The notes beneath the pieces were generated by a model. The model was given only the letters and a program-made list of their open reading frames with translations, did no database searches and had not been told where the DNA came from. From positions 64,001-128,000 of IMG/VR virus record IMGVR_UViG_3300025132_000021: a DNA stretch of 64,000 nucleotides. One strand, 5' to 3'. Numbering within the stretch: position 1 is the stretch's first letter; every line of letters begins with the position of its first letter. A program made the translations under genes and the position numbers. This document shows, in pieces, positions 2,822-61,631 of this stretch. Origin of the DNA: a virus.

Positions 2822-3229
2822 ATGACAATGGATAATGGATTTAACGAACCCCTAATTGAAGACCCTAACTCTACGGTCGCAGACTATCCTTGGGATGGAG
2901 ACCACGGGGCAACTCGTTCATACCACACCAGTTCAATGGCTGTTATGACAAACCCAATGCCCTCTATGGTCGCACCAGCAAAGGACGCTGTTAGCGAAGA
3001 GTTTGAAGGATTAAAAGAAGAAGTTTCAGAGTCATCACCAGAAGGTGCTGACATGGGACAGACTGGCGACGCTGGTGGCGACGCAGACGGACAAAACTTT
3101 GGACAAGACCAAGGTTCACAAGATACAAAGGCTGCTGAAGGCATCAATGTGCCTATTGTTGGCTCTGTTTCTTTGATGACTATTGGTATTCTTGGCGTAG
3201 TTGGCTTCTTACTTTACAGGAGAAAGTAG
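2822..3229 (+). CDS. acidic disordered protein with C-terminal TM anchor (putative virion membrane protein)
   Basis: P-I at 2782 (40 nt); KAAE motif just before the TM; ends YRRK. Confidence 0.7.
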   Translation: MTMDNGFNEPLIEDPNSTVADYPWDGDHGATRSYHTSSMAVMTNPMPSMVAPAKDAVSEEFEGLKEEVSESSPEGADMGQTGDAGGDADGQNFGQDQGSQDTKAAEGINVPIVGSVSLMTIGILGVVGFLLYRRK

Positions 3230-3266
3230 GGCAATCTTTAAGTAGTAAAAGGAATAAGGTGATTAT

Positions 3267-4124
3267 ATGGCACGAGTAATTGGAAATGCAGTTCTACCAG
3301 ATTTGCCCTATTCCCCAAATCTAAACCCACTACCTTCAGTTAATATCACCCGTGATACACTGGCAGGATACAATGCAAAAATTGAAATGGGTCAAGGATT
3401 AAGTGCCAAGACCCCACGACCAGCACCCACACTAAGTAAAATGCCTGTAATCGGAGTTCCCGAATCAGCACCATTGTCAATGGAAGCACAGGCTATGGGT
3501 GCAGGATATGGACAAGGTATTGTTCCAATGACCCCTCGCCCAGCACCTACACAAATTAACATTCCTCGTGTAGATGTTCCTCTTGGTAGTATGGCTCAAG
3601 ATTACGCTTTGCAGAATTATGATTTGATGGGTCAAGGTATTACGCCTTCCGCACAATATCTACGCCCAACTCACACTATGGAAGTTTATGCACCAGCCGC
3701 AGCACCTAATGTTGCAGGTCTTGAGCGCATGAAGGCTGAAACCATGATGGGTCGTGTCAATGCACACCAACCAGCCATGAACTTCGGTGGAGACCCAAGA
3801 TTTGAAGCAGAGATGACTTCAATTCGTCCAACTAACCCTCGTCTACTTGCTCGTGCGCCAACAGTCAATGTTAAGCAATCCGAGCAAAGAATCCCAATTC
3901 GTGAGTTGCCTCTTGTGCCAGCCAGCACACAACCACGAGTTCCAAATGTCGGCAAACTTGTAGGCCCAGTTAAGGCTATCAAGATGGAAGCCGAGTATGT
4001 AGCCCCTCCTATCCGCAACTCTGACCTCGGTGGTATGTTAAACAGCACCAGTCGTGTTGGAGGATTTGGAAACAGTAGCGGTCGTAGTTTCGGTGCAGAA
4101 GCACCTTTGACAATGCGACTCTAA
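3267..4124 (+). CDS. Pro/Met-rich repeat protein with several Phi-x-A-E motifs
   Basis: P-I at 3238 (29 nt); GQG..TPRPAPT repeats; MEAQ, MKAE, FEAE, MEAE, FGAE. Confidence 0.75.
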   Translation: MARVIGNAVLPDLPYSPNLNPLPSVNITRDTLAGYNAKIEMGQGLSAKTPRPAPTLSKMPVIGVPESAPLSMEAQAMGAGYGQGIVPMTPRPAPTQINIPRVDVPLGSMAQDYALQNYDLMGQGITPSAQYLRPTHTMEVYAPAAAPNVAGLERMKAETMMGRVNAHQPAMNFGGDPRFEAEMTSIRPTNPRLLARAPTVNVKQSEQRIPIRELPLVPASTQPRVPNVGKLVGPVKAIKMEAEYVAPPIRNSDLGGMLNSTSRVGGFGNSSGRSFGAEAPLTMRL

Positions 4125-4154
4125 ACAAAATAAAAAAACGGAGATGAACAAAAA

Positions 4155-4373
4155 ATGGATACAAAAGTAATAATTGTAGGAACAAGTTTGTTGGTAGTCG
4201 GTGCTTTCGCAGCATTGGGTGGAACTTTAGAAGCGTTCACTGTGCCTCTCCCAATCGTCGGCATGAATGCCCTTCAAGTTGGAGGCGTTGTCGTTGCATT
4301 GGTAGGTGTAGGAACTCTTGTAGGTTTTGACCCACTTCGCTTGAAGCAAGCCGCAGCCTCAACAGCATTCTAA
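4155..4373 (+). CDS. small 2-TM membrane protein
   Basis: A-tract plus GGAGATGA SD; two hydrophobic helices. Confidence 0.75.
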   Translation: MDTKVIIVGTSLLVVGAFAALGGTLEAFTVPLPIVGMNALQVGGVVVALVGVGTLVGFDPLRLKQAAASTAF

Positions 4374-4404
4374 GTGCCGCCTACGCTTAGGCGGTGAGAT
4401 AGAA

Positions 4405-4755
4405 ATGGATTCCAAAACTTTAGCAGAAACACAACGCATTTGTGATGCAGGGCTTGGGGCATATTTGTCTCAAAAGCACTCAGACTTTAGGTTGAAAAAC
4501 TTTAGTCGTGGAATTGTTGCTGGTTCAGTTTTCTCTGTTATTACCTATGGACTTATGAGTTTTGTCTTTGATATGAAAACACAAGCCATGTCTTATGCTT
4601 TAATTCCATTTGGTGCAGGTCTTCTTGGTGGTTCTTACCGAGGATTGACTCAAGCCGAGTCTGAAGATACTTTACATACCACTGATTTTGATGAAGTTTG
4701 TGCCAGTTTAGAATCTGATGAAGATGAAGATGAAGCAGAAGAAGATTCTGAATGA
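4405..4755 (+). CDS. 2-TM membrane protein with acidic tail
   Basis: GGTGAG SD; two hydrophobic segments. Confidence 0.7.
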   Translation: MDSKTLAETQRICDAGLGAYLSQKHSDFRLKNFSRGIVAGSVFSVITYGLMSFVFDMKTQAMSYALIPFGAGLLGGSYRGLTQAESEDTLHTTDFDEVCASLESDEDEDEAEEDSE

Positions 4756-4794
4756 GCAGTAATCTTTAAGTAGTCGTTCCATTTCATTTTAATT

Positions 4795-5082
4795 ATGGCA
4801 ACAGATATGTTCTCCGTTATTGTCCCTATGGTCGTTGGTGTTGGTCTTACTGCGGTGGTTGTTAAACTACTAATGAAGAAAACCGAAAAGAAATCAGAAC
4901 AGCAATCTGCTTTGATTACATCACCTACTGAAAATGAGATGCTCATGCGTAGTTTGCTTATGCGACCTACCGTTAATGCAGAACTTAATGCTAAGTATGG
5001 CTCTGCACCAAGTCCAGTTTCAGTTAGCACCATGACTGACCTGATTGTGGGAACTCCTTTACCCAGAGCCATCTATTCTTGA
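4795..5082 (+). CDS. small protein with N-terminal TM
   Basis: P-I at 4766 (29 nt). Confidence 0.7.
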   Translation: MATDMFSVIVPMVVGVGLTAVVVKLLMKKTEKKSEQQSALITSPTENEMLMRSLLMRPTVNAELNAKYGSAPSPVSVSTMTDLIVGTPLPRAIYS

Positions 5083-5091
5083 GGTTTTATT

Positions 5092-5652
5092 ATGAGAACT
5101 ACCTACCTTAATAGTCAAAAATACGCCTTAATTGGCACACTTGCTGCTATTTGTGGTGGTGTTTTGATGGTAGATTATTTACAAAAACAAAAAGTTAATG
5201 AATCAGAAGATGAAAAAGATTCTGATTGTGGTTGCTCTCATAAGAAAAATGCAGAAGCCCGAATTACTCGTGGACAAGAGGTTTATCAGTCTGAAATGAA
5301 CCAAGATGTTTCTGGTTCTGCTGCTGATTTGAACAGACTTAATCCAGTAGAAGTTGGCGGTGCAGAAGATGTCTACGGTGCTGAAAGTTTTGACACACAA
5401 TATGTTAATATGAATCCAATGGATTATCAGACTCCAACGGCTTTTAGCAACTATTCAGGTTATGCTTCCCAACCTTTTTGGGACCAAGCCAATGATTACT
5501 TGCCAGAATATCGCTTTGCTATGCCATGGTCCAGCAGTTATCTACCAGTAGATGCTTACCGACCTCAAGATTACCAAGGCTACCCAGCAGGCCCACTTCC
5601 TTATGATATGAGAACTCGTAGTATGAATTATACTACTTATCAACGCTCTTGA
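5092..5652 (+). CDS. N-terminal TM protein with Y/P-rich tail and AE motifs
   Basis: TM aa 11-29; KNAE, GGAE, YGAE. Confidence 0.7.
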   Translation: MRTTYLNSQKYALIGTLAAICGGVLMVDYLQKQKVNESEDEKDSDCGCSHKKNAEARITRGQEVYQSEMNQDVSGSAADLNRLNPVEVGGAEDVYGAESFDTQYVNMNPMDYQTPTAFSNYSGYASQPFWDQANDYLPEYRFAMPWSSSYLPVDAYRPQDYQGYPAGPLPYDMRTRSMNYTTYQRS

Positions 5653-5686
5653 GAACTATTAAGTAGTATCTCTGACATTTAAGAGT

Positions 5687-6277
5687 ATGAAAACTCTTGA
5701 TGATGTGCAAGATGATAATTTTAATCCGAGGTATGCAGCCCCTAATTCTATGTTTGAATGGTTAAATGATAACTTACCTAATGGTTCTAAGATTTTAGAG
5801 TTCGGTTCAGGCACAGGAACAATTAAATTAACTAAAAGTTTTGAGGTCACTTCTATTGAAGATAATGAACAATGGTTGTATTTAGCCCCCGAAAGCACTT
5901 ACATTTATGCCCCATCAGTCAATGATTGGTATGATTGGCAAGCCTTAGAAATCTTACAAGATGAAACTTTTGAAGCAATTATTATTGACGGACCTGCTGG
6001 GATAAATAACCGAGTTCATTTGATAGATTGGATAAATGTTTATCCTAATGTTTTTAATCAAGCCAGATTTGTTGTCGTAGATGATGTCTTTTTACCAACT
6101 GGTGAAACGCCATTTGTTCAACTTTTCAAACAATTAGGGTGGGAATTACTACATCACAACCCAAGTGAGAAAGACGGTCATAATTGGAGTGTTTATGTTA
6201 AAATCCATGAATGTCCAGAATGCGGAGAAGAGTTTAATCGTTATAATGACATGATAGAATGTTGTGCTAATCTTTAA
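5687..6277 (+). CDS. class I SAM-dependent methyltransferase (probably glycan O-methyltransferase type)
   Basis: ILEFGSGTGT motif I, VTSIED, IIIDGP, VVVDD; P-I at 5659. Confidence 0.75.
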   Translation: MKTLDDVQDDNFNPRYAAPNSMFEWLNDNLPNGSKILEFGSGTGTIKLTKSFEVTSIEDNEQWLYLAPESTYIYAPSVNDWYDWQALEILQDETFEAIIIDGPAGINNRVHLIDWINVYPNVFNQARFVVVDDVFLPTGETPFVQLFKQLGWELLHHNPSEKDGHNWSVYVKIHECPECGEEFNRYNDMIECCANL

Positions 6278-6302
6278 GTAGTCGTAAGCCTCAACACATA
6301 CT

Positions 6303-6530
6303 ATGCGAAACTATCCAGCAGAGTTTTATGCGAAGGACAAAAAACCACTTCATCAAATTGGTTATAGTGTTTCTTTGGCTATGATGGCAGTAGGAGTTTT
6401 AGAAACTTTACATGGTGTCTATTATCAAGTGAAGCAAGGCGATGGAAACCTCATTCTTGGACCAGCCCTTTTTGTAGCAGGCGGTGGCACAGCCTACCTC
6501 TGGCTTAAAGAGGCTGGAGTTGTCTACTGA
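6303..6530 (+). CDS. small 2-TM membrane protein
   Basis: P-I at 6274 (29 nt); two hydrophobic helices. Confidence 0.7.
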   Translation: MRNYPAEFYAKDKKPLHQIGYSVSLAMMAVGVLETLHGVYYQVKQGDGNLILGPALFVAGGGTAYLWLKEAGVVY

Positions 6531-7069
6531 TGAGTGTTGAGTGTCCAATTTGTTTTCAAAAGTTTGACTCTTTCCGAGGGCTAAATGGACACATGAACCG
6601 CCATAGACCTAAACGCTTGCGTGCTGAATCATCTAATATGGATTGTCCTATTTGCGGTGAAACTTGTAGTCAAGTTTCCAATACTGATTATGAATGTTCC
6701 ACTTGTGAAACTTTGTGGACTAAAATGCAAGGCGATGGATTTACCTATTTAGAGGCCGAAGAAGAAGATATTCTCGTTCCTTTTTTTGAAGGACAAGTCA
6801 TTATGCTGGATTGTCCCTTATGTAGTTATAGAACACCTCTTATTCAAGTAGGCTCAGGATTTTGCGAGGATTGTGGAGAGATGGTAAGTGCTTTTGAATT
6901 AAAACATTATTGTTTAGAGAATCACCCAGAATCAGTGCGAGACATTATTGAAGATGACATAGATGCTTATAATGAAGCAGAGTTTTGGCTACTTGAGAGT
7001 CATGCAGATTTTTGCCCAGCCATTCAATCAGGAGCCTTCACAGTAGAGGACATAGAAGATAACCTTTAA
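6530..7069 (+). CDS. multi zinc-finger protein (C2H2 plus Zn ribbons) with domains separated by LRAE and LEAE
   Basis: CPIC-F-L-H-H C2H2; CPIC..CSTC; CPLC..CEDC. Confidence 0.75.
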   Translation: MSVECPICFQKFDSFRGLNGHMNRHRPKRLRAESSNMDCPICGETCSQVSNTDYECSTCETLWTKMQGDGFTYLEAEEEDILVPFFEGQVIMLDCPLCSYRTPLIQVGSGFCEDCGEMVSAFELKHYCLENHPESVRDIIEDDIDAYNEAEFWLLESHADFCPAIQSGAFTVEDIEDNL

Positions 7070-7094
7070 GTAGTCGTATCGTGAAGGGTTTTTT

Positions 7095-7538
7095 ATGGCA
7101 CTAATGACCAACGGTTATGTTCGTAAAGATTCTAATTCTAAAATGGGATTCTTACCACCAACTTCAACAGAGGCTTTAATGATGGGAGATGGTTCATTGA
7201 TGGATACTGCTGCTTTCCGTGATGGACACCCAACTACTAAATACACTCCTGCTGAACTCGGCATGGATGTTACGGCTTCACCTTTTTACGACCCTGAGAA
7301 AACTCAAGCAGCCAAAGCCGAGCCACAGCCGAGCGAAGGCGAGACAGTGGCACAGGATAGCCAAACGGCTGCCGACTCGGAGTTCGGTGCAGATACTCTT
7401 AATCCATTAGGAGTTTCTATGCCAGATGCACTCCAAAACTTTAATTCGTGGGCATCTCTAAATGTAGGCAAAATAATTCTGGGCGCAGGAGTTCTATATT
7501 TAGCCTATCGTTTGGGGGCTAACACTAATGCTTCGTGA
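7095..7538 (+). CDS. disordered protein with C-terminal TM
   Basis: P-I at 7066 (29 nt); FGAD motif before the anchor. Confidence 0.7.
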   Translation: MALMTNGYVRKDSNSKMGFLPPTSTEALMMGDGSLMDTAAFRDGHPTTKYTPAELGMDVTASPFYDPEKTQAAKAEPQPSEGETVAQDSQTAADSEFGADTLNPLGVSMPDALQNFNSWASLNVGKIILGAGVLYLAYRLGANTNAS

Positions 7539-8058
7539 GTGGCATCCCGGACAGCGTGTAACTTCAATTGCTGTTCAATCATTAGGAGTAGGAACAATTC
7601 TTGTTCCCTCAATTAGTCATGTAATCGTTGAGTGGGATGATGGTTCTTGGTCTAAAGAACGATACCAAGATATAATTTATGTTGGCGAGTCTAAACTTGA
7701 ACCCTTACCGATTCCCACCAAAGGTGGAAATCCGATACCCCGCCGAGGCTCTAATGATAGCACATTAGATGGTGCTAACAAACTTGACTTAGACCCACAA
7801 ATAGATTTTGATGATGACACTATTCCTAATCAGATGAATCCAGACAGACCCTCAAACCAAAATCCCTATTCTTCAGGTAGTCTGAATCCAGAGATATTTT
7901 CAGTTGAAAGTTTTGATGAGATTTCTTACGCACCCGACCGTGGACGATTTTCTAATCCAACCCTACTTAGACAACAAACTTTAGATTCGGCTTTAGAGCG
8001 TGCGATGACCAATTGGTTGCTACAAGGCGGAGGCGACCGAATGAGGAGGAAAATCTAA
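7528..8058 (+). CDS. hypothetical protein with N-terminal SH3/Tudor-like beta barrel
   Basis: WHPGQRV...GVGTI...VIVEWDDG pattern. Confidence 0.55.
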   Translation: MLREWHPGQRVTSIAVQSLGVGTILVPSISHVIVEWDDGSWSKERYQDIIYVGESKLEPLPIPTKGGNPIPRRGSNDSTLDGANKLDLDPQIDFDDDTIPNQMNPDRPSNQNPYSSGSLNPEIFSVESFDEISYAPDRGRFSNPTLLRQQTLDSALERAMTNWLLQGGGDRMRRKI

Positions 8059-9248
8059 TGATGCCTACTTATTATCAATCTTTTGATACAGGAGAAACTA
8101 AAACTCTTGATGCTTGGTCTCAAGGCTATGTGCTTTACACCCAAGCCGATGGCAGCATGGTAGGTTATACTAAGTTTTCAAATGGGATTCCACCTATTAC
8201 TTTGCGCCCTGTTGATTCACCTCCCGGTTCTGCTTCAGGACCCAACTTCCCTCCATTTGGGATTCAAACATCTGCTTTGTTTCATGCCGAGTCTACTCAA
8301 TTTGATTTACTACGCCGAGAACTTCGCTCACAAGGTTTAGACCTGCAAGCCAGCAAGCGTATTCCTGAAAACTGGGTAATCTTACTTGAAGAAAGTTTGC
8401 CTATGGGTTTTTCTATGCAAGCCTTAGTTGCCCCAGAATACTATTCGGGTTATGATGCTGACCCATTCCAACAAGTAGTAGGAGGACAAGGTGAAGCAGG
8501 AATTAACCAACAAGGAATCGGAGTTATTCTTCGTGGCAACGGACAAATGGCTAAAGATATTTGGTTAGAGGGTTCTTCTTTAGAACGCCAAACTGAAAAC
8601 TTTGACAAAGCCGTTAAAGTAGCCAGTCAATTTCTTAATCCAGTTGTTTCTCATCAAAACATTGGTGCGATTGAAGGTCGTAGTCCTTTCAACACAGATG
8701 GACGACCTTGGAAACCGGGCGACCTTGTGAATGTTTCCAGAGATTCATTAGATGGAGGCGGTTTAGCCACAGCCCATGTAGTCCGAGTTTATACTACTGA
8801 TGTTTTAGTTGTTTGGCCTAATGATGCTGACCACCCAAAGTCTGAATATCCACGAGGTTGGTTCACTCAAGAAGATAAAGAAGATTTAATTTTCATTAAA
8901 GAAGACCCAGCATGGTTGGTCGCATGGAAAAAACTTCCCTTGGATTTATCCTCTCGTTATGGTGCAGAAACTCGTTATGAAAATGAGTTAGGATACAATA
9001 TGGATGGACGCTGGTTCACCCCAAGTAATCCACTACCTTTGTATGGAGGCACGGCAGAACGCCAACAAGAAGCCATGATGATGGGTTCTCCTCCACCATG
9101 GGCTACTATGATAGATATGCCAATAGGCTTATCACTTCGCACTACACCTAAGCATTCTTCTTCAGATATTTACACCGAGATGGATGAAATCAGTCTTCAT
9201 CTTCGTCGTCAAGAGGCTCTTGCTGAACTCACAGGACTTCGCTTATAA
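8058..9248 (+). CDS. multi-module protein with FHAE and YGAE motifs and an internal SH3-like module
   Basis: GAGGAGG SD and TAATG overlap place the start at 8058; WKPGDLV..HVVRV..VLVVW module. Confidence 0.65.
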   Translation: MMPTYYQSFDTGETKTLDAWSQGYVLYTQADGSMVGYTKFSNGIPPITLRPVDSPPGSASGPNFPPFGIQTSALFHAESTQFDLLRRELRSQGLDLQASKRIPENWVILLEESLPMGFSMQALVAPEYYSGYDADPFQQVVGGQGEAGINQQGIGVILRGNGQMAKDIWLEGSSLERQTENFDKAVKVASQFLNPVVSHQNIGAIEGRSPFNTDGRPWKPGDLVNVSRDSLDGGGLATAHVVRVYTTDVLVVWPNDADHPKSEYPRGWFTQEDKEDLIFIKEDPAWLVAWKKLPLDLSSRYGAETRYENELGYNMDGRWFTPSNPLPLYGGTAERQQEAMMMGSPPPWATMIDMPIGLSLRTTPKHSSSDIYTEMDEISLHLRRQEALAELTGLRL

Positions 9249-9287
9249 TAGCAAATCTTTAAGTATCGGAATGGATACAGATTGAGT

Positions 9288-10160
9288 ATGCGTCTGACTC
9301 AAGTAGGATTAGGTGTCGCTCTACTGTCTGTTGTCGCTTACATTAGTAGCGATAAAGTAAAGGACATGGCTTCCAAAGTTTTTGGAGCCGATGCCATCAC
9401 ACCCGCCGAATTAGAAGAAATGCACATTGAATCAAGCGGAGTCACAGTAGACACCGTTCCTGTTTCCAATGTTCAAGCGTTCCTCGGTTGGGAACAATTG
9501 CACCTGCAACACACTACGGCTGTTGCTAATGACTCGCCATTTATGGATGGCGTAGTTGATGCTCAACCAGTTTATACCAATCCATTTGACATCGGATACA
9601 GTTTTGACCAAGAGTATTACGGTGCAGAAAGTTTTAACGCTGATGTTAATGGAGGATACTCTGGAAACTATGCAGGACAAGGTGCATCTTCTTTTGATGT
9701 AGCAAACCCACCTAATGAAGTTCCAACCGCAGGAACTCCATATCGTGTTCAAGCCCACACAGGTCAGGTTTATTCCACAGACCCCGCAACTGGTGTCAAT
9801 GGACAACCACTTCCCTATTCGGGTGCAACCCCTGTGGCACGGCTTCCACCCGAAGTCAATTCTGACTTCCCATACATGGTGAGTTTGGTTAATGCACCGT
9901 TTGTTACTGTTCCCACTTCTGAAACTGGTAGCAACCGTTTTGGTAGTTTGGCTCGCAACTCTGTTGATGATGCTATCAACGGTCGTTTTGGAGAAACAGC
10001 ATTGGCTCCTGAAGTTGATGCTTCTTACATGAGTCCAGATGGAACAACTATGCCTTTGAGTCAATGGCGTAGCAAATACACAGTCCTTCGTCATTCAGAC
10101 ACAATGGTTTCAGCCATTCCGTTTAGTGGTGGAGTAGAATTACAGTTAAGGAGAGTATAA
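9288..10160 (+). CDS. N-terminal TM protein with FGAD/YGAE/FNAD motifs
   Basis: P-I at 9259 puts the start at ATG 9288 (29 nt). Confidence 0.7.
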   Translation: MRLTQVGLGVALLSVVAYISSDKVKDMASKVFGADAITPAELEEMHIESSGVTVDTVPVSNVQAFLGWEQLHLQHTTAVANDSPFMDGVVDAQPVYTNPFDIGYSFDQEYYGAESFNADVNGGYSGNYAGQGASSFDVANPPNEVPTAGTPYRVQAHTGQVYSTDPATGVNGQPLPYSGATPVARLPPEVNSDFPYMVSLVNAPFVTVPTSETGSNRFGSLARNSVDDAINGRFGETALAPEVDASYMSPDGTTMPLSQWRSKYTVLRHSDTMVSAIPFSGGVELQLRRV

Positions 10161-10162
10161 GA

Positions 10163-11833
10163 ATGAGTAAGAAAATGTTATATGTCCGTTCTAAGGATTA
10201 TTGGGGCTATGATGCTTCAGATTTTGATGCAACTATGAACTTTTACAAATATACTTGGGTTGTTCCTGAAGCCATGTATAACGACATGGACGATAGCAAC
10301 AAATCCCGTTTGTATCCTTGTGCTTTGTTTTATGTTCAAGGAGTTACTGATAATCATAATTTCTTAACTATCAGTGTAAATGTTGATGGCTCAAATGCTA
10401 CTGTTAAGGGTATGCAAGGCACAAAGCGTAGAACTCGTAAGTTTGAAGTTGGCGTTCCTTTTGCTTATACTGTTGGTAGTTTAACTATGAAAGAAGCACC
10501 AGCAGGTGCAACTTCAGTAGACTTTATTCAAGAAGAAGTTAAAGAAGGGCGAGCCACTACTGAAGGAAGTTTCATTATTGATGGTTTCCTAACTGAAGCC
10601 ACAGATATTGCTGAAGTTGTGGGACTAAGTTCTACTGCTGAAGCCGAAACCGTAATGGAGCCTGCTGATATGGCTTCACCTATGGAAGATGAACCAACTC
10701 CAAGTGGTTATGAACCCACATCTTATGAAGCCGAAATTGATGATTCAGTCGCAGTTTCCGATTTCTACCCTCAAGAATCTGCTCAAACCCACGATGTTGC
10801 TTCTGGACATGGTGTTCCAGTGGCTTACGGTTCTGGGTCTTCCCAGAATCTTGAACCTCCAGTTGTTGTAGATGATGAATACATGGCGGCTGAAGATTTT
10901 GAAGCAGAAGTTTCAGATTTCTACCCACAATCCTCTGCTGAAGTTGGCGATACTCAATCAGGACATGGAGTTCCAGTTGCTTATGGCTCTGGCTCATCAC
11001 AATATGTAGAGCCACCAGTTATGGTAGACGAAGAAATGGCTGCTGAATATGACGATTCCGTAGAAGTTTCTGATTTCTACCCGCAGGAATCTGCCCAAAC
11101 TCACGATGTTGCCTCTGGTCATGGCGTGCCAGTTGCTTACGGCTCTGGTTCATCTCAAAACCTTGAACCACCAGTTGTAGTAGATGAAGAAATGGCTGCT
11201 GAATACCAAAAAGGTCGTCGTGGTGCTGGTGGAAGATTCCGAAGCAAGCGTGCTATTCGCAACGAAGTGTTCGGAGAAACAGTTGCTAATCAAATGGCAG
11301 GTTATTGGAGAACAGGTGTCGTTGGCACAAACCCAGTCGTAGGTTCAGATGTTGCTCGTAGTAATCCTGACAAGCGATACAATTATTTTACTCAACCAGC
11401 AGTTCGTAATGAAAACACAGGAATGTATAACAAAGGACCTAACTTCCGTCAAGCACACAAGATTGCTAAGGGAGTTGCATGGGACAGAGTAGAACGCCTT
11501 GGACTCGCTGCTGAAGCAGAAGTTCTTATGGCTGAATCCAAGTTTGAAACTTTGGCTTCTAAGATTGCCAAGCAATACGAGAAGAAAGGTATGGAACCGG
11601 GCAAGGCTATGGATATTGGCCGACGCACCGCTTACAAAGTTGGAGTTTCTAAGTATGGTAAATCAGGTATGACTCGCAAATCAATTGCAGGTCGCAAGGC
11701 TGCTGAATCTTACTCCGCAGACCGATTCGTAGATTCACTTAATGAAGCCGCCCCAGCACGCCTACCTATTAAGGGCATGGCTGCTGCTATTGTTGGCACA
11801 CTTCTTGGTGTCGGCTACGCTATGAAGAAGTGA
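10163..11833 (+). CDS. membrane-anchored polyprotein-like protein: globular N-domain, three acidic repeats, basic modules, C-terminal TM
   Basis: YEAE, MAAE x3, FEAE, KAAE and YSAD motifs separate the modules; ends TM-MKK. Confidence 0.75.
   Translation: MSKKMLYVRSKDYWGYDASDFDATMNFYKYTWVVPEAMYNDMDDSNKSRLYPCALFYVQGVTDNHNFLTISVNVDGSNATVKGMQGTKRRTRKFEVGVPFAYTVGSLTMKEAPAGATSVDFIQEEVKEGRATTEGSFIIDGFLTEATDIAEVVGLSSTAEAETVMEPADMASPMEDEPTPSGYEPTSYEAEIDDSVAVSDFYPQESAQTHDVASGHGVPVAYGSGSSQNLEPPVVVDDEYMAAEDFEAEVSDFYPQSSAEVGDTQSGHGVPVAYGSGSSQYVEPPVMVDEEMAAEYDDSVEVSDFYPQESAQTHDVASGHGVPVAYGSGSSQNLEPPVVVDEEMAAEYQKGRRGAGGRFRSKRAIRNEVFGETVANQMAGYWRTGVVGTNPVVGSDVARSNPDKRYNYFTQPAVRNENTGMYNKGPNFRQAHKIAKGVAWDRVERLGLAAEAEVLMAESKFETLASKIAKQYEKKGMEPGKAMDIGRRTAYKVGVSKYGKSGMTRKSIAGRKAAESYSADRFVDSLNEAAPARLPIKGMAAAIVGTLLGVGYAMKK
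10736..11203 (+). repeat. three tandem 46-53 aa repeats VSDFYPQ..SGHGVPVAYGSGSSQ..EPPV..MAAE
   Basis: Seen directly in the translation; copies differ mostly at synonymous sites. Confidence 0.9.
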
Positions 11834-11837
11834 TTTC

Positions 11838-12125
11838 ATGTATGGAGTTAATTCGTGGGATACCTACGGAACTCGTTTGGCCTTTAATGCTGATGAAGAA
11901 TCCGAAGATACTGAAGATTCTCAAGAAGATGTTGAAGAAACGACCCAATCTAAACCTTTGGCCGCCACTAAATCAAGTAATGTGTTAGGTTATGCAGTTC
12001 TGGGTGGAATTGGAGTCATGGCTTTTGGTTATCTTTACTTTATGATTAGTAATCCTCAAGCCTATGTTCAAGCCACGGCTATTCGCACAGGCGGAAACCT
12101 CTTGGGTCAAGCCTTAAGTTCATAA
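11838..12125 (+). CDS. small acidic TM protein
   Basis: FNAD motif; hydrophobic helix. Confidence 0.7.
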   Translation: MYGVNSWDTYGTRLAFNADEESEDTEDSQEDVEETTQSKPLAATKSSNVLGYAVLGGIGVMAFGYLYFMISNPQAYVQATAIRTGGNLLGQALSS

Positions 12126-12139
12126 GAGTAGTTTTACTT

Positions 12140-12502
12140 ATGAGTTCTATGGACGAGTTTAATTGGGGCATTTATGGTTATCCTGTTTCTGACGAAGATG
12201 AGTCAGAATCTTTAACTGAAATCACAGCCCTTGCTTGGACAGGAGATTATTCCAACTTAGATATTCAAGAATACCACTTTGTTGTAGGCCAACCCGACCC
12301 TCGTTGTAGCCAACATCAGGTCATGGCTATCCGCCGAGTTTCCTATCCTGATGCAGACCCAGAAATCCAAATACTTTTACAAGGCGAATGCACGGCTAAT
12401 TCATGGGAACAATTTAGAGTTTTAGCGTGGGAAACCTCTGCAATCGCAAAGGTGGCTTTTGAAAGCGAGATGTCTTGGGCAGGAACACCAAACTTTAAGT
12501 AG
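12140..12502 (+). CDS. hypothetical protein
   Basis: 120-aa ORF; TAG stop inside the next promoter. Confidence 0.65.
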   Translation: MSSMDEFNWGIYGYPVSDEDESESLTEITALAWTGDYSNLDIQEYHFVVGQPDPRCSQHQVMAIRRVSYPDADPEIQILLQGECTANSWEQFRVLAWETSAIAKVAFESEMSWAGTPNFK

Positions 12503-12523
12503 TCGTTCAACTCAACTCTGATT

Positions 12524-13456
12524 ATGTCAGACGAAGGTATCTCTCCATTTTTAGCAGAGATTGAATCCGAGATTACTACGGAAGCAGCAGGTAATCCAAA
12601 CAATGCTGTCGCTTTTGATATGGAATCTCAAAAAAACTCCGTAGTCGGTGCAGTAGAAATTACTGATAGCGATTACTCCAAATATCTTAGTTCATCTCAA
12701 CGCTCATCTTTGCCTAAGCATTTACAAGAAGGAATTATTCGTAAAAAGAAAACTGCTGAAGCCGAAGAAGAAGCGATGCCCAGTTTTGAATCTCTTCGTG
12801 ATGAAACCAATGCTTCAGTTCCAGAGGCTCCGCAAGACCCTGCCGAACCTGAACCAGATATTAGCCACATGGGGGAAACTCCTGAACCCGGTATGTTTGA
12901 GCCAGACCTCGGTATTACCGAAGAAGGTGGTCCTGAAGAACCTCCCGCCGCCCCTTTGCCTCGTCCAGAACCCGTAGAAGTAAGTTTTGTAGCAGAACGC
13001 CTTAATAATCAAGAACAAGAACTTAAGATTGCCAGCATGACTCAAAAGCAATATGAGGATTGGTTGTTCCCTGATAACAAAGAAGAATCAGATTGGGCAT
13101 CAGGACAAGTGGCTTTGGCTCGTATCATGGCGAATCTCAAAGCAGCAGGCTATGATTCTGTCAGCCTAAGTTTAGATGATGAGTTATTCCCTGCTTATGT
13201 CCAAGTTGCTTCGGCACTTTGGAGTCGTCAAAACTTTTCAACACCAGTTCGTGAAGATGTTATTACTCAAATAGAAAACGCACCTGCGGCTCAATTGGTT
13301 TCCACTTTAGAAGCCACAGCCAGTGCAGTTCCCACAGAATTAGCGGCAGAACTTTTCAGAGTTCCTGTTGAAGAATCTACTAACTACATTCCTTATGTGG
13401 GTGTAGGATTGGCAACATTGTTTGCATTTATGAGTCCATTCTTCTGGAAGAGATAG
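12524..13456 (+). CDS. acidic/Pro-rich protein with C-terminal TM
   Basis: P-I at 12495 (29 nt); KTAE, FVAE, LAAE; ends FWKR. Confidence 0.7.
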   Translation: MSDEGISPFLAEIESEITTEAAGNPNNAVAFDMESQKNSVVGAVEITDSDYSKYLSSSQRSSLPKHLQEGIIRKKKTAEAEEEAMPSFESLRDETNASVPEAPQDPAEPEPDISHMGETPEPGMFEPDLGITEEGGPEEPPAAPLPRPEPVEVSFVAERLNNQEQELKIASMTQKQYEDWLFPDNKEESDWASGQVALARIMANLKAAGYDSVSLSLDDELFPAYVQVASALWSRQNFSTPVREDVITQIENAPAAQLVSTLEATASAVPTELAAELFRVPVEESTNYIPYVGVGLATLFAFMSPFFWKR

Positions 13457-14322: not shown

Positions 14323-15345
14323 ATGAACGCAATAACGAATGTCGCTCAAGAATCCTATGATGGATTGATGGATTCAAGTTTCTATTCAGGTGTCGCTGGT
14401 ATTGCTGTCGGCGGTATCCTTGGTAGTGTTGTCACTCTACTTCCTTTTTACAAATTAGGAATGTTTGGTAATATCACTCGCACAGTAGCCACAATGGGTT
14501 CAGGTGCATACCTTGTTATGAAGTCTAACCAAGTAACTGGTGATATGCAATCTCTTTATCGTGGTGCAGGTGCAGTTCTCGGATTCATCGGCGCATCACA
14601 AGTTGTCGGTTATCTAACTGCAACCACAGGACTTTCCATCCCCGGATTCAACGGACTTGGTTCAGTTCTAACAGGAAGTTTTGCTTCTGAAGGAGAAGAA
14701 GTTATTGCCCAGCGTGGAGATGGCCGAGTTCTCGGACAAGAAACTGCTACTCAATCTTATTCTGACATTTACAATGCTGACACTTTTGAAGAAGGCACTG
14801 TTGAAATGCAAAACCGTGTTTCACCAGATGACCCAATCAACTCGGTTGTAGAAGAAGCCCCTCTCGGTCATGGAGTCACTCAATGGTTCGGTGCAGACGG
14901 TGTTTCCGCAACTGGCGGTGTTGCTCAAAGTTTTGGAGGAGTTGCTGAATCTTCTACTATGAATCATTCTCCTCAAACAAATGTTTCTCAATATGTTTCC
15001 TCTGTGGATTCATTGGGAACTCGTGCTATGAATCTTAACAAAGGTTCAGCACTTGTTCAGTCGGCTTATGGTAAGGGCTACGAACCTCCTGTCCACTACT
15101 CGGCTGAAGAACCAACAGTAAGTGTTGGACAACCAACTCCTACCCCAATGGCGGGTTCAATGCCTGACTTGTGGAGTGCTTACTCCAAGCCCGGAACTAC
15201 CGCCGAAGAAAGCATCATGGACACCGTTAGGATTATGGCTCCCGGTCAGCCTATTCAGTGGTATGGTGCAGAAACCAGTGCAACTGGTATGATTTCCAAC
15301 CATGTGTCTTCAGCAGAAGGCTTTGGCAGTGTGGTAGGACAATAA
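14323..15345 (+). CDS. membrane protein (N-terminal TMs) with a peptide-motif tail
   Basis: P-I at 14294 (29 nt); FASE, YNAD, WFGAD, YSAE, WYGAE. Confidence 0.7.
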   Translation: MNAITNVAQESYDGLMDSSFYSGVAGIAVGGILGSVVTLLPFYKLGMFGNITRTVATMGSGAYLVMKSNQVTGDMQSLYRGAGAVLGFIGASQVVGYLTATTGLSIPGFNGLGSVLTGSFASEGEEVIAQRGDGRVLGQETATQSYSDIYNADTFEEGTVEMQNRVSPDDPINSVVEEAPLGHGVTQWFGADGVSATGGVAQSFGGVAESSTMNHSPQTNVSQYVSSVDSLGTRAMNLNKGSALVQSAYGKGYEPPVHYSAEEPTVSVGQPTPTPMAGSMPDLWSAYSKPGTTAEESIMDTVRIMAPGQPIQWYGAETSATGMISNHVSSAEGFGSVVGQ

Positions 15346-15637: not shown

Positions 15638-16177
15638 ATGAACATTAAAGGAATGCTAATTAACAAATACACAGTCGGCGGTAGCCTTCTGTTAGTCGGT
15701 GCTGGATTCTTCAGCACTCGTTTTACTGACGCTCTATCTTACCAACTCTTTACCTTGCCATCGGGAATCCCAATGATTGGCGGTGCATCCGTCACTGTTG
15801 GCCGTGTCGCAGGTTTAGTCCCACTAAGTCTCGGAATCGCTTTCCTACTAAGTGAAGCACGACCTATCACCAGTCGTATTCCAGTAGTAGACCGTGTAGC
15901 CGCAATTGCAGACAACCTCGTTAGCGAGATTTCTGAACCAGTTTCCACTGAAGCCTCCACCATGGGCGCAGAAGAACTTGAAGCAGAAACCGTAGACCAC
16001 ATCAACCCTACTGAAGTTGCAGAAGACTCCGAAACAGAATCTTTTGAAGCAGAAGGTGGAAAGATGAAGTGGACTGATGCAGTTTCTAAGGCTCGCAAAG
16101 ACCTCGGAATTACTGGATTTACCCCTGTTAAGAAGGGAACTCCTCTTTACAACAAAGCCAAGTCATACACTGCTTGA
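15638..16177 (+). CDS. 2-TM protein with C-terminal DVNP-like basic module
   Basis: After FEAE comes KWTDAVSKARKDLGITGFTPVKKGTPLYNKAKSY. Confidence 0.7.
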   Translation: MNIKGMLINKYTVGGSLLLVGAGFFSTRFTDALSYQLFTLPSGIPMIGGASVTVGRVAGLVPLSLGIAFLLSEARPITSRIPVVDRVAAIADNLVSEISEPVSTEASTMGAEELEAETVDHINPTEVAEDSETESFEAEGGKMKWTDAVSKARKDLGITGFTPVKKGTPLYNKAKSYTA

Positions 16178-17398: not shown

Positions 17399-17468
17399 AA
17401 AAAGTCCAATTAGTATTATGAGCAACCATGTGTTGTTCTAAAACCAAAAAAAATGGAGAATGAAAAAT

Positions 17469-18161: not shown

Positions 18162-18162
18162 A

Positions 18163-29178: not shown

Positions 29179-29210
29179 GTATTAAGTAGTCGTAAGTAAT
29201 AGGTGATAAT

Positions 29211-30011: not shown

Positions 30012-30043
30012 TCTTTAAGTATCAAGATGACTAAATCTTAGTC

Positions 30044-48965: not shown

Positions 48966-50351
48966 TTAAAGATATGGATAAGGAGTAGCACTCCAAACCT
49001 CTATGGTTTCCGCACCATATTCTCCAGACATCAATTCATAACCAACAAACTTCCAGATTTCAGCCCATGAGCCTCCGCAGGAATTACACCTTACTTCTTG
49101 TAAGCCGTTTTCTAAAGAACCCTCGTAGCCAATATCGTCTGCACCACACCAAGGACAGTGCATCAATTCTGCCATTTCCATGAAAGTTTCAGCATTCATA
49201 GCCTTGTCTATCTCCCAATCTCCATCATTATTCTCTTCATCAAGATAATTACGGGATACTCCAAGTTCATACACAGGTTCTTTATCCATGACACAAAGTT
49301 CATTTTCTTGCCAGAAAAAACTGATGTTATAGGCAATTGTAGAAGCCCAATCTACGGCTTCCCACGGAATCCAAGCAGTTAATACGATACGGTCAAAATC
49401 TTTTCCTTCTTCGCCTTTCATGTGGTCTATACCCTCATGTCCGAACAATGCCCCTGCGTAAAACTTACTCTGCCACAACCAAGAAGTAATCTTATCTCCA
49501 TAAACTCCATATTGGTCTTGCTTTCTATTTTCCCAATTGCCTAATGAATCTACATTAACTGGTGTGCCTACGGGAACATAAAGAACTCTCCATGCTTGCA
49601 TCATTATTCCATGGTCGTCATCAGAATACATCCAAGTTCCCTTTTCAAATCTTTCAAGCCAAATATCAAACATCCTCTCAAAGTATTCATCTTTAGTGGT
49701 ATCTTCGCCAAGTTCCGAACCATCAGGCAAGTCAAACCCTTCCTCATAAGCCCCCAATCCTCCTCCAGCCATATTATGTTCTGCCCAATGTTTAATATCT
49801 TCTTGAGCAGGTGAATACCAAATCCGTTTTATTTCATTTATGATATAATCTGTGCAAGCAAAGTTTTCTTCACTTGATTCTGCATCCAATCTACGGGTCT
49901 CATTGTTTTTGGGAAATAAACTGCTGCCCCAAAACTTTTTGCCAGTGCGCTTGGCCTTACGAACTACCATTGGAGTTCCTGTGCTATCACGAGGCACACG
50001 GTTTAGATAACCAGACTTGACTAAGTTCTCTAACTCATAAACACGGTTTAACAAATTGCGTCGCCAGTTTTCTACTCGGTGAACTCTGGTCGTTCCAGCA
50101 ACTTTCACTCCATCTACCCAGTATTGCACTCGGATAGCATCACGACCTTTCGCCCGACTGGTCTGCCCAGTCACGCTGGAATAAACTCGGATTTCGCCCT
50201 CACCCAAAGGACGGGTGAACACTCTTTCTTTGACAACTCGGATTGCCCCACTGGGATATTTACTGGACCGTTCTTCTATGGAAAGTTCCCTAAAACTCAA
50301 GGCTTCCATAAAATCTTGCATTTGAGCCACGCTAATATCAACATAACTCAT
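48966..50351 (-). CDS. multi-domain protein: basic N-domain, degenerate topoisomerase Zn ribbon, ADP-ribosyltransferase-like domain, Zn ribbon
   Basis: P-I at 50380 (29 nt); LDAE, MNAE, YGAE boundaries; R..S..ExE arrangement. Confidence 0.6.
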   Translation of the reverse strand: MSYVDISVAQMQDFMEALSFRELSIEERSSKYPSGAIRVVKERVFTRPLGEGEIRVYSSVTGQTSRAKGRDAIRVQYWVDGVKVAGTTRVHRVENWRRNLLNRVYELENLVKSGYLNRVPRDSTGTPMVVRKAKRTGKKFWGSSLFPKNNETRRLDAESSEENFACTDYIINEIKRIWYSPAQEDIKHWAEHNMAGGGLGAYEEGFDLPDGSELGEDTTKDEYFERMFDIWLERFEKGTWMYSDDDHGIMMQAWRVLYVPVGTPVNVDSLGNWENRKQDQYGVYGDKITSWLWQSKFYAGALFGHEGIDHMKGEEGKDFDRIVLTAWIPWEAVDWASTIAYNISFFWQENELCVMDKEPVYELGVSRNYLDEENNDGDWEIDKAMNAETFMEMAELMHCPWCGADDIGYEGSLENGLQEVRCNSCGGSWAEIWKFVGYELMSGEYGAETIEVWSATPYPYL

Positions 50352-59180: not shown

Positions 59181-59201
59181 TCGTGCGACAGCATGGTAAC
59201 T

Positions 59202-59999
59202 ATGGAACCTTGGCGTAAGCACTTTGAAATGTTTTCAGCAGATGCTCTGGAGGACATGAAAACTTATTCTGACAATACTCACGAAGAAAGGGAATGGATG
59301 TGTTATGTCTACGAAAAGGATGGTCGTTATGAACTTGGCTCGCCGTCGCTTGGCACAGAATCTCGTATTGAGGTTAATCCAGTCGCTAAGGCAGCGCAAG
59401 ATGCTGGCAAAGGTTTGACTAATCGTATGTGGACTATCCACGGACACCCTCTAAAAGATGGTAAGATTTACACAGGTCGCCAATACTTTTCCTCTACGGA
59501 TATTATCAATGAGTTCCTAAAAACTCGTGATACCAACGAACCCGTAGTTCAATGGATTACTTATCCTCATCAACAATTAGATACTAATACTGGTAAGAAA
59601 GTTATTCACAACCGATGCCGAACTTTAGTGTTTCCATCTCGTGATGTAGTTATCAAGGCCATGCAAGTTAGCAATCCAGATGTAGATGTTATGGCAATTA
59701 CCAGAGAATCTGGACAAAACCGCAACGCTGCCGATGGTAGTTTAGTAAATGATTCAGGTATTGATTGGTTCGCTTTCCAAGAAGCACTGGGAGATATGGG
59801 CTACATGGGCATTATGGATTTAGAAGGACCAGCCGCAGGAGCCAAGCCTTTCCGTAGTGAATCTATGTTTGTGAAAAAGTTTGGAATGCTTTCTGTGATT
59901 GCACTCGGAATTGCAGGATTCGCATACTTGAGCAAAACTCAAGGATTTGGTGCAGAAGTTGAAGTCGTTGATGGCTTAGGCGAATGGCACGAAATCTGA
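59202..59999 (+). CDS. JAB/MPN-like Zn metalloprotease with C-terminal TM
   Basis: EREW..TIHGHP..FSSTD (E, HxH, SxxD); P-I at 59173 puts the start at ATG 59202. Confidence 0.65.
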   Translation: MEPWRKHFEMFSADALEDMKTYSDNTHEEREWMCYVYEKDGRYELGSPSLGTESRIEVNPVAKAAQDAGKGLTNRMWTIHGHPLKDGKIYTGRQYFSSTDIINEFLKTRDTNEPVVQWITYPHQQLDTNTGKKVIHNRCRTLVFPSRDVVIKAMQVSNPDVDVMAITRESGQNRNAADGSLVNDSGIDWFAFQEALGDMGYMGIMDLEGPAAGAKPFRSESMFVKKFGMLSVIALGIAGFAYLSKTQGFGAEVEVVDGLGEWHEI

Positions 60000-60008
60000 T
60001 GTGAGTTT

Positions 60009-61631
60009 ATGTTTGGTAAGATTGTGGGTGCAGGACAAGCAGGATTCGTTTTTGAGAATCCCAAAAATCCCGATAGTTATTACAAAATTGTGGCTTTACC
60101 AGAACAACCTTTAGAAAAAATGCCTTTGCGTTCCACGAAAGCCCGATTAGGTGCTATCAATCAAAATCAAGCAGAACTTTTCTTTAGACTCTACCAAGAA
60201 GACTTGGACATCCCACAACTTCCAAAAGTTTTTGCTTTCTACACTGGGACAGTAACGCCGAAACTGCGCCGAAACTTATTGAACGCTGCTTCTGAAGATG
60301 AGGAACTTGAAAGTTTAGTTCGTGGTCTCAAAACTAATCAAAAAATTGCTGTGTGGGAAATGGAACGCATACCTTGTTTGAGCGAAAATGATTTCTGCGA
60401 GCGTTATCCTACTCGTCAGCCTCATAATAATCCAGATTATCAAAACTTATTGGATACTATGTTAGACCTTGGTTTTGTAGTTCGTGATGTTGCCAATCCT
60501 GAAAACTTTGGTTATCGTGAAAATGGAACACAAGTTTTCTACGACCCTATTGTGGCTCCTTGGCCTGTGCAAGAGGTAACAAAAGTTTCAGACCCGAACC
60601 GTTATGCTCGTTTCGTAGCCAGTTTTGGTCCCGACCAGATTAGCACCACTCGTCGTGCGATTCAATCTGGAGATTATTTCGGTTGGTATCATAGTGGAGG
60701 AGTTATGGAGGCAGAAATGTCCCATGAACAGGATGCTGACATAGTTAATGAATACCGATATGCAACATTTATTCTAATTGCTCGCACGCCAAGTGGTAAT
60801 GATTACCAAGTTTCACCTTTAAGCGAACATAATTCGGCTTGGAGAACCGCTTTTGGCAAGAAACCACACGGCGTAGAAGAATTAGTTGAAGAAATTGCTT
60901 TCATATTTGATAATCTGGGGACAGCACCTAATCCCTATGCCATTGATATTTTCCTTTTAGTTCCTGATGGAAGGCTGAAGTTAGCAGGTGTAATCAAATA
61001 TGGTAAAGTAGAAGCCAGTTATCCTTACGAGAACCTTGCTAAACTTTTGAATCGTCGTCTGGACTTTGAGCGTTCTGCTGAAACTTTGCAGGACAACTAT
61101 TTCCCAGAAGGAACTATTTACAATCCTAATCAATCAGGAGCCATAAACTGGATTAAACCTGCACCTTATTTAGACATCTGGGCTTCTTTTTATGGTGATA
61201 TTGTAGAGTGGCTACAAGAAAATGTTTATGAAATGGATGATGATGGCGATTCAGCCATAGAAATGTGGGAACGATTCTCACCTGACTTAAAACCACTTAT
61301 GGAGTATGTTCAACAAAACGATTTAGACCCCGATGATATTTTACCAGAAATCATGGAGGAATCTCCATTGAACAGACCTTATTCAACAGTTTCTAAACCC
61401 CAACTAATCAAATCCAGAAATGCAGGATTTTTGAACTTCATGCGTAGAGCCACTTTATCCGTTCCATGTGCTGAATGTTATGGTAAAGGATACATCAATC
61501 GCACAGCAGGAGAATACGATGAACACGAGTGGACAGAAGAGTGCGAAACTTGTAATGAAGAAGGAGAAGTAGATATTGATAACACTGATAATCGCTATTA
61601 TAGACAGCATAAGGAGGACTACCCACTATGA
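60009..61631 (+). CDS. multi-domain protein: N-terminal protein-kinase-like domain, C-terminal DnaJ-type Zn finger
   Basis: GAGQAGFVF..YYKI, WEMERI, RDVANPENFG..FYDP; MEAE and RSAE boundaries; CAECYGKG..CETC. Confidence 0.65.
   Translation: MFGKIVGAGQAGFVFENPKNPDSYYKIVALPEQPLEKMPLRSTKARLGAINQNQAELFFRLYQEDLDIPQLPKVFAFYTGTVTPKLRRNLLNAASEDEELESLVRGLKTNQKIAVWEMERIPCLSENDFCERYPTRQPHNNPDYQNLLDTMLDLGFVVRDVANPENFGYRENGTQVFYDPIVAPWPVQEVTKVSDPNRYARFVASFGPDQISTTRRAIQSGDYFGWYHSGGVMEAEMSHEQDADIVNEYRYATFILIARTPSGNDYQVSPLSEHNSAWRTAFGKKPHGVEELVEEIAFIFDNLGTAPNPYAIDIFLLVPDGRLKLAGVIKYGKVEASYPYENLAKLLNRRLDFERSAETLQDNYFPEGTIYNPNQSGAINWIKPAPYLDIWASFYGDIVEWLQENVYEMDDDGDSAIEMWERFSPDLKPLMEYVQQNDLDPDDILPEIMEESPLNRPYSTVSKPQLIKSRNAGFLNFMRRATLSVPCAECYGKGYINRTAGEYDEHEWTEECETCNEEGEVDIDNTDNRYYRQHKEDYPL

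Follow-up and report, generated by a model that had tools for sequence, protein, structure and literature searches.

What is the role of a four-residue motif that punctuates more than twenty proteins of a single virus? This question is raised by a stretch of 64,000 nucleotides of viral DNA (here called the window), which corresponds to bases 64001-128000 of the 160,342-bp single contig IMGVR_UViG_3300025132_000021. In an original prediction made from the letters of this DNA, the motif (F/Y/M/L/K)-x-A-(E/D) was noticed in 22 open reading frames (ORFs) and was proposed to mark sites where membrane-tethered precursors are cut at their module borders. Our analysis argues for a revised version of this idea: late precursors would be cleaved by a viral enzyme, with a probability that we estimate from the sequence data at roughly 0.6. 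The notion of a processing code at the module borders of late, virion-type precursors came through the comparisons with shuffled sequences, control proteins, relatives and border positions, whereas the motif unit, its K and L starts, one site (FSAD) in a JAB-domain protein and the extent of membrane anchoring had to be corrected.

Enrichment of the motif in late virion-type proteins

Each of the 22 ORFs carries at least one match to the wide pattern, at the place where it had been reported (the ORF listed at 30913 has a GTG start in frame with the ATG at 30982, and that listed at 59202 begins at an in-frame ATG of ORF 59193). Expected counts were derived from per-protein shuffles, which keep the composition. 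On this basis, the wide pattern is found 98 times in the window as compared with 47.8±6.4 in shuffles, and the narrower pattern [FYM]-x-A-[ED] is found 64 times for 22.7±4.6 expected (z 9.0), well above composition-matched sequences. Within the block at 2.8-33.4 kb, 52 sites of the narrower pattern are observed for 12.2 expected (z 11.3), as compared with 34 for 26.3 (z 1.5) in the remainder of the genome. Across the whole window, no enrichment is seen for LxA[ED] (z 1.4) or KxA[ED] (z 1.2), and both starts are weakly enriched in the 2.8-33.4 kb block (LxAE, z 3.5; KxA[ED], z 3.0). The motif as first written thus holds for its F, Y and M starts, K and L being minor. In marine viruses, the sites converge on [FYM]-[GSADEN]-A-E; a looser second copy, [TS]-F-[EN]-A-x, often comes next, and a longer variant, Y-G-S-A-E, also occurs. 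A 30-residue peptide cassette ending in YGSAE is itself repeated within and between several genes and across relatives (window:27115-27210 and 23490-23580; L003:3271-4203).

In a set of twenty controls, among them DP2, MCM, ligase, the capsid-like paralogs, a fibre protein, HerA and AAA, 4 matches are found for 8.3 expected, and the five capsid-like paralogs have no motif site. Chance matches in a glycosyltransferase and a pyruvyltransferase are not conserved, and neither are some motif sites within the carriers. Genes behind the TTAAGTA promoter class, which is common to structural genes, hold 79 motifs for 33 expected, as compared with 19 for 15.6 in the other genes; an excess tied to this promoter class is found in three of four genomes (this one, G001 and G002). 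As regards the promoters themselves, about half of the window genes are preceded by a strong TTTAAGTA consensus, located about 30 nucleotides ahead of late-type genes, and a variant, TTAAATA, is seen more often in G002 and G003. Charge steps at the motif exceed background by little (p 0.02), and the difference given by a disorder proxy is modest (79% versus 63%).

Position at module borders and membrane anchors

Homology ends, domain limits and strain breakpoints coincide with the motif, as expected if it lies at module borders. The long carriers are mosaics, the same cassettes being found in other proteins and other viruses with homology ending on the motif. Among 169 carriers, 85 of 363 internal alignment C-ends coincide with the acidic residue itself, for 5.5 expected; of 373 alignment N-ends, 156 lie inside the motif. 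Contigs of other strains break at window positions 25027, 25300 and 27201, each being the last base of a motif Glu codon. Furthermore, a cassette that opens a protein in one virus directly follows the motif in another, and shuffled cassettes are always separated by the motif.

The motif is also found at the border between a module and its membrane anchor. It lies at most 35 residues before a C-terminal transmembrane (TM) segment in 12 of 69, 29 of 145 and 10 of 19 cases, for 2.8, 7.0 and 2.4 expected, respectively, a three- to four-fold excess; the last set is a freshwater lineage (see below). Terminal TM segments occur in 18 of 34 carriers, as compared with 81 of 408 other proteins. It had been proposed that many carriers have an N- or C-terminal anchor and that the precursors are membrane-tethered. 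Both statements hold for about half of the 22 carriers, which are hydrophobically anchored, but not for the other half, which have no anchor.

The enrichment extends to four related genomes (z 5.7-9.6; 77 versus 41.8 expected) and to 80 metagenomic capsid loci, where 1047 motifs are counted for 333 expected. Comparison with orthologs indicates that many sites are kept while their flanks diverge. For instance, at MRAE118 of the protein encoded at 26734, the [AS][ED] pair is kept at 80%, as compared with 24% identity in the flanks.

A tail-anchored JAMM protein as candidate enzyme

A search for a protease, as called for by the original prediction, yielded a JAMM candidate within the window but no T4-, HK97- or Ulp1-type protease. 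The candidate is a tail-anchored JAB/JAMM metalloprotease encoded at 59193..59999 (+ strand), with a pre-anchor site FRSE (59850-59861), a TM segment at about 59865-59927 and a post-anchor FGAE (59946-59957). Its residues E34, H83, H85, S100 and D103 correspond to the catalytic Glu and the HxH..SxxD zinc site of JAMM enzymes and are intact in 119 of 119 full-length homologs. A structural model (predicted local distance difference test score, pLDDT, 77) matches MPN proteins in almost all of the top Foldseek and VIA rows, with a best Foldseek E value of 8.5e-5, to BRCC36, and Z scores of 7.9-8.0; with PfJAMM1, the Z score is 7.9 and the root-mean-square deviation (rmsd) 3.4 over 122 aligned residues; a sequence search of the PDB with the JAB alignment returned nothing meaningful. 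The gene is present in 5 of 5 genomes with about 51% identity, near that of DP2. It is single-copy, never fused in the genomes seen and preceded by a late-type promoter, and its homologs form 324 clusters. A weak Pfam relative is DUF4329, which we take to be a polymorphic-toxin JAB. Altogether, the JAB protein is better read as a candidate protease than as cargo.

The JAB domain had been described as bracketed by FSAD and FRSE. The pre-anchor site stands, being kept in 35 of 36 homologs with a detected TM segment, but FSAD14 lies inside the confidently folded part and marks no N-terminal border; a relaxed motif precedes the catalytic Glu in no more than 12 of 36 homologs. Co-occurrence of JAMM and motif is based on five marine contigs and one freshwater lineage. 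Archaeal and bacterial JAMMs cleave linear peptide bonds in precursors and fusions (PMC6043591; PMC8832034).

Other protease families were also searched. S77/S78 prohead proteases gave no match at E≤1 in four genomes, two of them with intact terminal repeats, though very remote homologs could escape. The C5/C48 profiles (PF00770, PF02902) gave no match, and the I7 family PF03290 is absent from the general Pfam scan, no search aimed at PF03290 having been made. Pfam and PHROG scans of 115 unannotated proteins contained no protease, and core gene 32390 had no usable ESM Atlas match.

A divergent freshwater lineage

A profile search of 1.8 billion proteins recovered divergent anchored JABs. They keep the catalytic residues except P0171 (L148), a distant relative in which the catalytic Glu, both His and the tail anchor are lost. 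In a freshwater-sediment virus of 56% guanine-cytosine (GC) content, the anchored JAMM (L156:6646-7449) is 30% identical to the marine one, and the contig also encodes polyproteins of 700-1400 residues and a capsid-like protein that belongs to the marine family (40% identity, E 9e-49). There, [FYM]xA[ED] is not enriched (9 versus 6), but [FYM][SAG]A is (35 versus 10.9), YSA being the top 3-mer. The pattern was first chosen by eye on L146/L147; an unbiased 3-mer ranking on L156 placed YSA first. It reads [YF]-[SAG]-A-x, the next residue being Ala, Glu, Asp, Pro, Asn or Val. Because the freshwater lineage is enriched for [FYM][SAG]A and not for [FYM]xA[ED], the conserved core is aromatic-x-Ala, Glu being lineage-specific. 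Of the x-A-[E/D] unit first proposed, the Ala core is retained across lineages, but the conserved unit is aromatic/Met-x-Ala.

Many freshwater sites are followed by a tag, [IVL]-H-x-x-Q-R-x-A (25 copies), and one freshwater polyprotein starts with the tag alone. Two freshwater strains differ by a cassette swap directly after YSA. In the freshwater relatives L156, L157 and L160 (JGI 3300003852 and 3300027896; a 155-kb contig exists), one capsid-like gene was seen.

Alternative explanations

Several points weigh against cleavage of the precursors by the viral JAMM. Cleavage and presence in virions are predicted from sequence, not from peptides. Some variants have Pro as fourth residue (FEAP, MSAP), which is awkward for a cut on either side, and the freshwater repeat is a 12-14 residue element ([AS][AS][IVL]HxxQRxA after an aromatic residue), longer than a cut site requires. 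In G003, enrichment is not tied to the promoter class as defined here. The large enzyme polyproteins 22810, 24695, 46231, 48966 and 60009 have no anchor, and the capsid assignment is built on a low-confidence model. As regards the enzyme, we know of no JAMM that reads a bare motif of 3-4 residues. Characterised JAMMs need a folded ubiquitin-like domain and cut after Gly-Gly (PMC6043591), and this requirement is the weak link of the JAMM proposal. Host small archaeal modifier proteins (SAMPs) could be substrates of the JAMM.

Cutting may be envisaged to depend on another enzyme: the product of core gene 32390, a host protease, or the HExxH metallopeptidase that is clustered with a MoxR-type AAA ATPase, a Zn-finger protein and a vWA protein (L004:2236-11689; genome 55236-64689). 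The JAB protein would then be a cargo, for example a desampylase acting against ubiquitin-like host defence. Its build is indeed that of a cargo (domain, site, anchor), its weak relative DUF4329 points the same way, several core genes are unannotated, and the known JAMMs require a ubiquitin-like fold (PMC6043591). We nevertheless find this unlikely: cargo cassettes are hypervariable and shuffled, whereas the JAB gene is single-copy, unfused and conserved about like DP2. Searches for S77, S78, C5 and C48 proteases were empty, the MoxR-vWA/HExxH cluster has no match in the G003 contig, where the motif reaches z 9.3, and the Pfam scan of the 115 unannotated proteins contains no ubiquitin-like (Ubl), E1 or E2 family. 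A signal peptidase reading was rejected, since signal peptidase I does not suit an aromatic residue at -3.

It may also be imagined that the motif stays uncut and serves as a docking or packaging peptide, in the manner of the T4 capsid-targeting sequence (CTS), by binding the scaffold, the inner capsid face or the viral AAA ATPase. Such a role would fit with the extended tags found after the core ([TS]-F-[EN]-A in marine, [IVL]-H-x-x-Q-R-x-A in freshwater viruses), with the freshwater polyprotein that opens with the tag alone and with the Pro variants; moreover, the T4 CTS joins targeting and processing (PMC9026906). Docking without cleavage is, in our opinion, quite improbable, as such a signal would be needless where the motif is found: at both ends of every module, between a domain and its own membrane anchor, in tandem copies 5 residues apart, or within a few residues of a C-terminus. 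Moreover, the motif always splits shuffled cassettes. Docking could well be a second function of the tag, alongside that of a cut site. Finally, the motif might have no protein function and simply reflect acidic composition or DNA recombination, as an integron-like or microhomology scar; strain breakpoints on motif codons and the over-use of GCT (79/165) and GAA (120/131) in the sites would be in line with such an origin. This view is largely refuted and retains very little probability: the shuffles preserve composition, the 165 sites have 123 different DNA spellings with all synonymous codons used, sites are conserved in unshuffled single-copy core proteins and ahead of the JAB anchor, and the protein core is retained in the lineage of 56% GC.

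Proposed mechanism

We infer that the motif is a protease recognition code. Cleavage at the motif is quite probable and, if it occurs, the viral JAMM would be the favoured enzyme; taken as a whole, the version that names the JAMM has slightly less than even odds. The cut would more likely be after Ala than after Glu (about 60:40). Three features favour a cut after Ala: the aromatic-x-Ala core, the [IVL] position of the tag, which does not vary in either spacing, and the fact that known JAMM substrates have a small residue at P1; a cut after Glu is still in play because of the strong marine preference for Glu and the T4 precedent. The starts of stand-alone and internal cassettes are compatible with a cut on either side of Glu.

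According to this model, late genes would make precursors in which aromatic/Met-x-Ala-(Glu) linkers string together swappable cassettes (PolX, WGR, kinase-like, GNAT, Zn-finger, basic DNA-binding and acidic peptides). A terminal helix, for which the viral Get3-family ATPase is a plausible insertion factor, would keep about half of the precursors on a membrane, and precursors would be gathered into the assembling particle. During or after assembly, the tail-anchored JAMM, on the same membrane, would cut at the motif and free the modules, and itself, from anchors and from each other. Packaged into virions, the released DNA-binding peptides and enzymes would condense the DNA or enter the next host with the genome. 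Recombination at the joints would allow cargo swaps without domain breakage, and the tags that follow the site could contribute docking or prime-side recognition as well. More broadly, one may tentatively picture, with a little less confidence than doubt, a widespread group of large single-jelly-roll archaeal viruses in which a JAMM freed from the need for a ubiquitin-like fold serves as maturation protease, the motif is the joint for packaged effector and DNA-binding cassettes on tail anchors, and motif and enzyme have drifted together between marine and freshwater lineages. Cleavage or not, the motif is a practical key to an abundant ocean virus group: with it, dozens of orphan ORFs can be divided into their actual modules and the virion cargo predicted.

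The motif-bearing genes of the window

In the interval 3267..13456 (+), the carriers starting at 3267, 5092, 6530, 7095, 8058, 9288, 11838 and 12524 have 1-4 sites each, the single-site ones being individually non-significant. A tail-anchored protein (10163..11833, +) consists of three repeat units, each ending on MAAE as had been noticed, and basic modules; its YEAE188 is found in 11/11 orthologs, for a flank identity of 33%. Likewise, YGAE314 of a conserved membrane protein with 4 sites (14323..15345, +) is found in 20/20 orthologs, for 39% flank identity. An N-terminally membrane-bound precursor (15638..16177, +) ends in a DVNP-like basic peptide, which is preceded by FEAE136 (16043-16054) as claimed, the Pfam match being weak (E 4e-4, below cut-off). 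A tRNA-Ala(TGC) gene (window:16312-16385) lies between this precursor and the capsid genes.

A cluster of carriers follows on the + strand. It comprises an acidic cassette polyprotein with no TM segment (22810..24690; FDAE, FDAD, YGSAE, LDAE) and a cassette polyprotein with 7 sites (24695..26698), in which strain swaps stop on the final base of MNAE (25027) and of FDAE (25300). Then comes a tail-anchored polyprotein (26734..28245) whose WGR domain (residues 41-111) is closed by MRAE118, as first described, and followed by repeated cassettes ending in YGSAE or MD[AS]E; position 27201 is the end point of a strain swap. Also tail-anchored are a cassette protein (29211..30011) with MEAE, FCAE, KDAE and MHAE, and a cassette polyprotein (30982..32364) with FEAE (32179-32190) just ahead of its TM segment. 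The proteins starting at 28645 and 30044 (28645..30613, +) are single-site and of membrane or virion type.

On the opposite strand, a polyprotein (46231..48939, -) contains a minimal PolX and further shuffled modules. Its Pfam domain (187-344) lies between FGAE177 (48400-48411) and MRAE343 (47902-47913), in agreement with the bracketing proposed, and this PolX cassette is found in a different polyprotein in G002. The polyprotein at 48966..50351 (-) carries LDAE (49878-49889), MNAE (49188-49199) and YGAE (49008-49019); the ART-like domain claimed between the first two found no support in Pfam, NCBIfam or the Atlas. Beside the JAB gene, in L041 and L044 too, lies a gene for a kinase-like polyprotein (60009..61631, +). 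Homology to relatives stops at MEAE233 (60705-60716), which closes the module as had been proposed, but the kinase identity comes from sequence motifs only, with no profile match. A long, low-complexity Pro/Gly/Glu-rich protein (window:56216-58348) adjoins the JAB locus in all relatives seen.

The virus and its probable host

The contig ends are exact inverted repeats, as in a linear genome. The virus is assigned to archaea because it encodes PolD (DP1, DP2), an MCM-like helicase, PCNA, ligase, TBP, TFB and ribonucleotide reductase. It is probably of a large, tailless, membrane-containing archaeal type, and apparently belongs to a so far undescribed ocean virus group of archaea. Its DNA is present in marine sequencing runs from many studies, and the group is represented in metagenomes by the 324 JAB homolog clusters and at least 497 capsid-gene matches; it includes several contigs of 140-175 kb. 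As host, a marine member of the Thermoplasmatota is probable. The best TFB matches (54-56%) are in genomes of 1.5-2.1 Mb, one of them a Tara Red Sea euryarchaeal metagenome-assembled genome (MAG), and fit, without proving, a Poseidoniia host. Contigs of the group (L128-L131; protein P0113) were binned into MAGs labelled Rickettsiales, Woesearchaeota, Methanobacteriota and Thorarchaeota. Contigs from RNA runs span capsid and cargo genes, which cannot show transcription.

Pfam and PHROG matches of the 115 unannotated proteins include no head-tail gene (HK97 capsid, portal, terminase). Twin motif-free, capsid-like genes of single-jelly-roll-like type lie at 17460..18849 (+; starts 17460 and 18163). 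The model is a weak single jelly roll (pLDDT 48), its best match being the SPV1 capsid (Z 7.6, rmsd 4.0, 137 aligned). A C-terminal helical signature of these proteins recurs in at least 5 proteins, including one of 951 residues (window:17460-18849, 34320-35794; L003:5093-7948). A HerA/FtsK-like ATPase (730..1914, +), the putative packaging motor, is found in 5/5 genomes, with weak HerA matches below curated cut-offs. The virus also encodes a Get3/TRC40/ArsA ATPase (L003:8473-9618; genome 46473-47618), above the TIGR00345 cut-off and present in 5/5 genomes alongside many tail-anchored proteins. An internal virion membrane is suggested by the many TM proteins together with this ATPase. Just upstream of the polyprotein cluster, a classic-clade AAA ATPase of PAN/FtsH/Cdc48-like type (21410..22771, +), core in 5/5 genomes, is a possible accessory; paired with the JAMM, it is reminiscent of Rpt-Rpn11 and Cdc48-Npl4.

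Elsewhere, a sign change of GC skew coincides with a flip of gene orientation (window:41000-43000), beside DP2. Three tandem paralogs of a DNA cytosine methyltransferase are encoded at L006:6617-9263 (genome 148617-151263), the L001:9419-9907 protein has an archaeal ribosomal-stalk-like C-terminal decapeptide in two copies, and a Gln-Gly repeat protein with Asp-rich calcium-binding-like repeats starts at L002:19653-20000 (genome 38653-40365).

Comparison with known systems

Both tailed phages and eukaryotic jelly-roll viruses characteristically mature by proteolysis. In a literature search with little coverage of subscription journals, neither the present virus group nor the motif nor a JAMM maturation protease turned up in any paper, and there was no report of maturation proteolysis in tailless archaeal viruses or of a JAMM used for maturation. 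Among archaeal viruses, the Halopanivirales SH1 and HHIV-2 and the Portogloboviridae SPV1 resemble this virus in candidate jelly-roll-like capsid paralogs, a HerA/FtsK-like ATPase, many membrane proteins and a linear genome with inverted terminal repeats. However, their genomes have about 20-30 kb, as compared with 160 kb here, and the present virus has its own PolD replisome, TBP and TFB. To our knowledge, no maturation protease or polyprotein occurs in single-jelly-roll archaeal viruses, and a targeted literature search for these found nothing.

With the JAMM/MPN+ enzymes (HvJAMM1, PfJAMM1, CsRpn11, DrJAMM and CBASS Cap3), the candidate shares the fold and the E-HxH-SxxD site, in a family able to cut linear precursors and fusions (PMC6043591; PMC8832034). 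It differs from them by a 14-residue His-Ser spacer, a C-terminal helical extension and a tail anchor; no ubiquitin-like partner is recognised in the genome, and the proposed substrate is a short linear motif.

The systems of T4 (gp21), phiKZ (gp175) and SPN3US (gp245) resemble the present one in that many internal proteins are cut at a motif of 3-4 residues, with acidic spacers and short targeting peptides. The T4 cleavage motif is L/I-X-E (PMC9026906), and that of SPN3US is A-X-E, with repeated cuts in propeptides (PMC10052503). Here, in contrast, searches gave no S77/S78 protease, HK97 capsid, portal and terminase genes were not recognised, the capsid-like proteins are motif-free, the sites split internal cassettes instead of removing terminal propeptides, and Ala stands directly ahead of a Glu that is dispensable in the related lineage.

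African swine fever virus (ASFV), through pp220/pp62 and pS273R, and also vaccinia I7 and adenain, offer another parallel: membrane-attached polyproteins in a tailless, membrane-containing double-stranded DNA virus, a short motif, and a viral protease from a family acting on ubiquitin-like modifiers (PMC11311002). Membrane-attached multi-module precursors with a short motif repeated at their borders are present here too. Nevertheless, the host is archaeal and the capsid single-jelly-roll-like; the candidate enzyme is a JAMM zinc protease and not a Ulp1/SUMO-type cysteine protease; anchors are helical instead of myristate; in place of two conserved core-shell polyproteins, there are at least a dozen variable precursors, among which enzyme cassettes are shuffled; and the motif is aromatic-x-Ala where ASFV and I7 use Gly-Gly or Ala-Gly. 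Thus, the system would work like ASFV and T4/SPN3US maturation but belongs to neither kind, as the proteases, capsids and motifs of both were not found here. If true, virion maturation would have recruited a protease of ubiquitin-like modifiers a second time, independently of the Ulp1 family used by ASFV, poxviruses and adenoviruses, and this would be the first JAMM reading a short linear motif.

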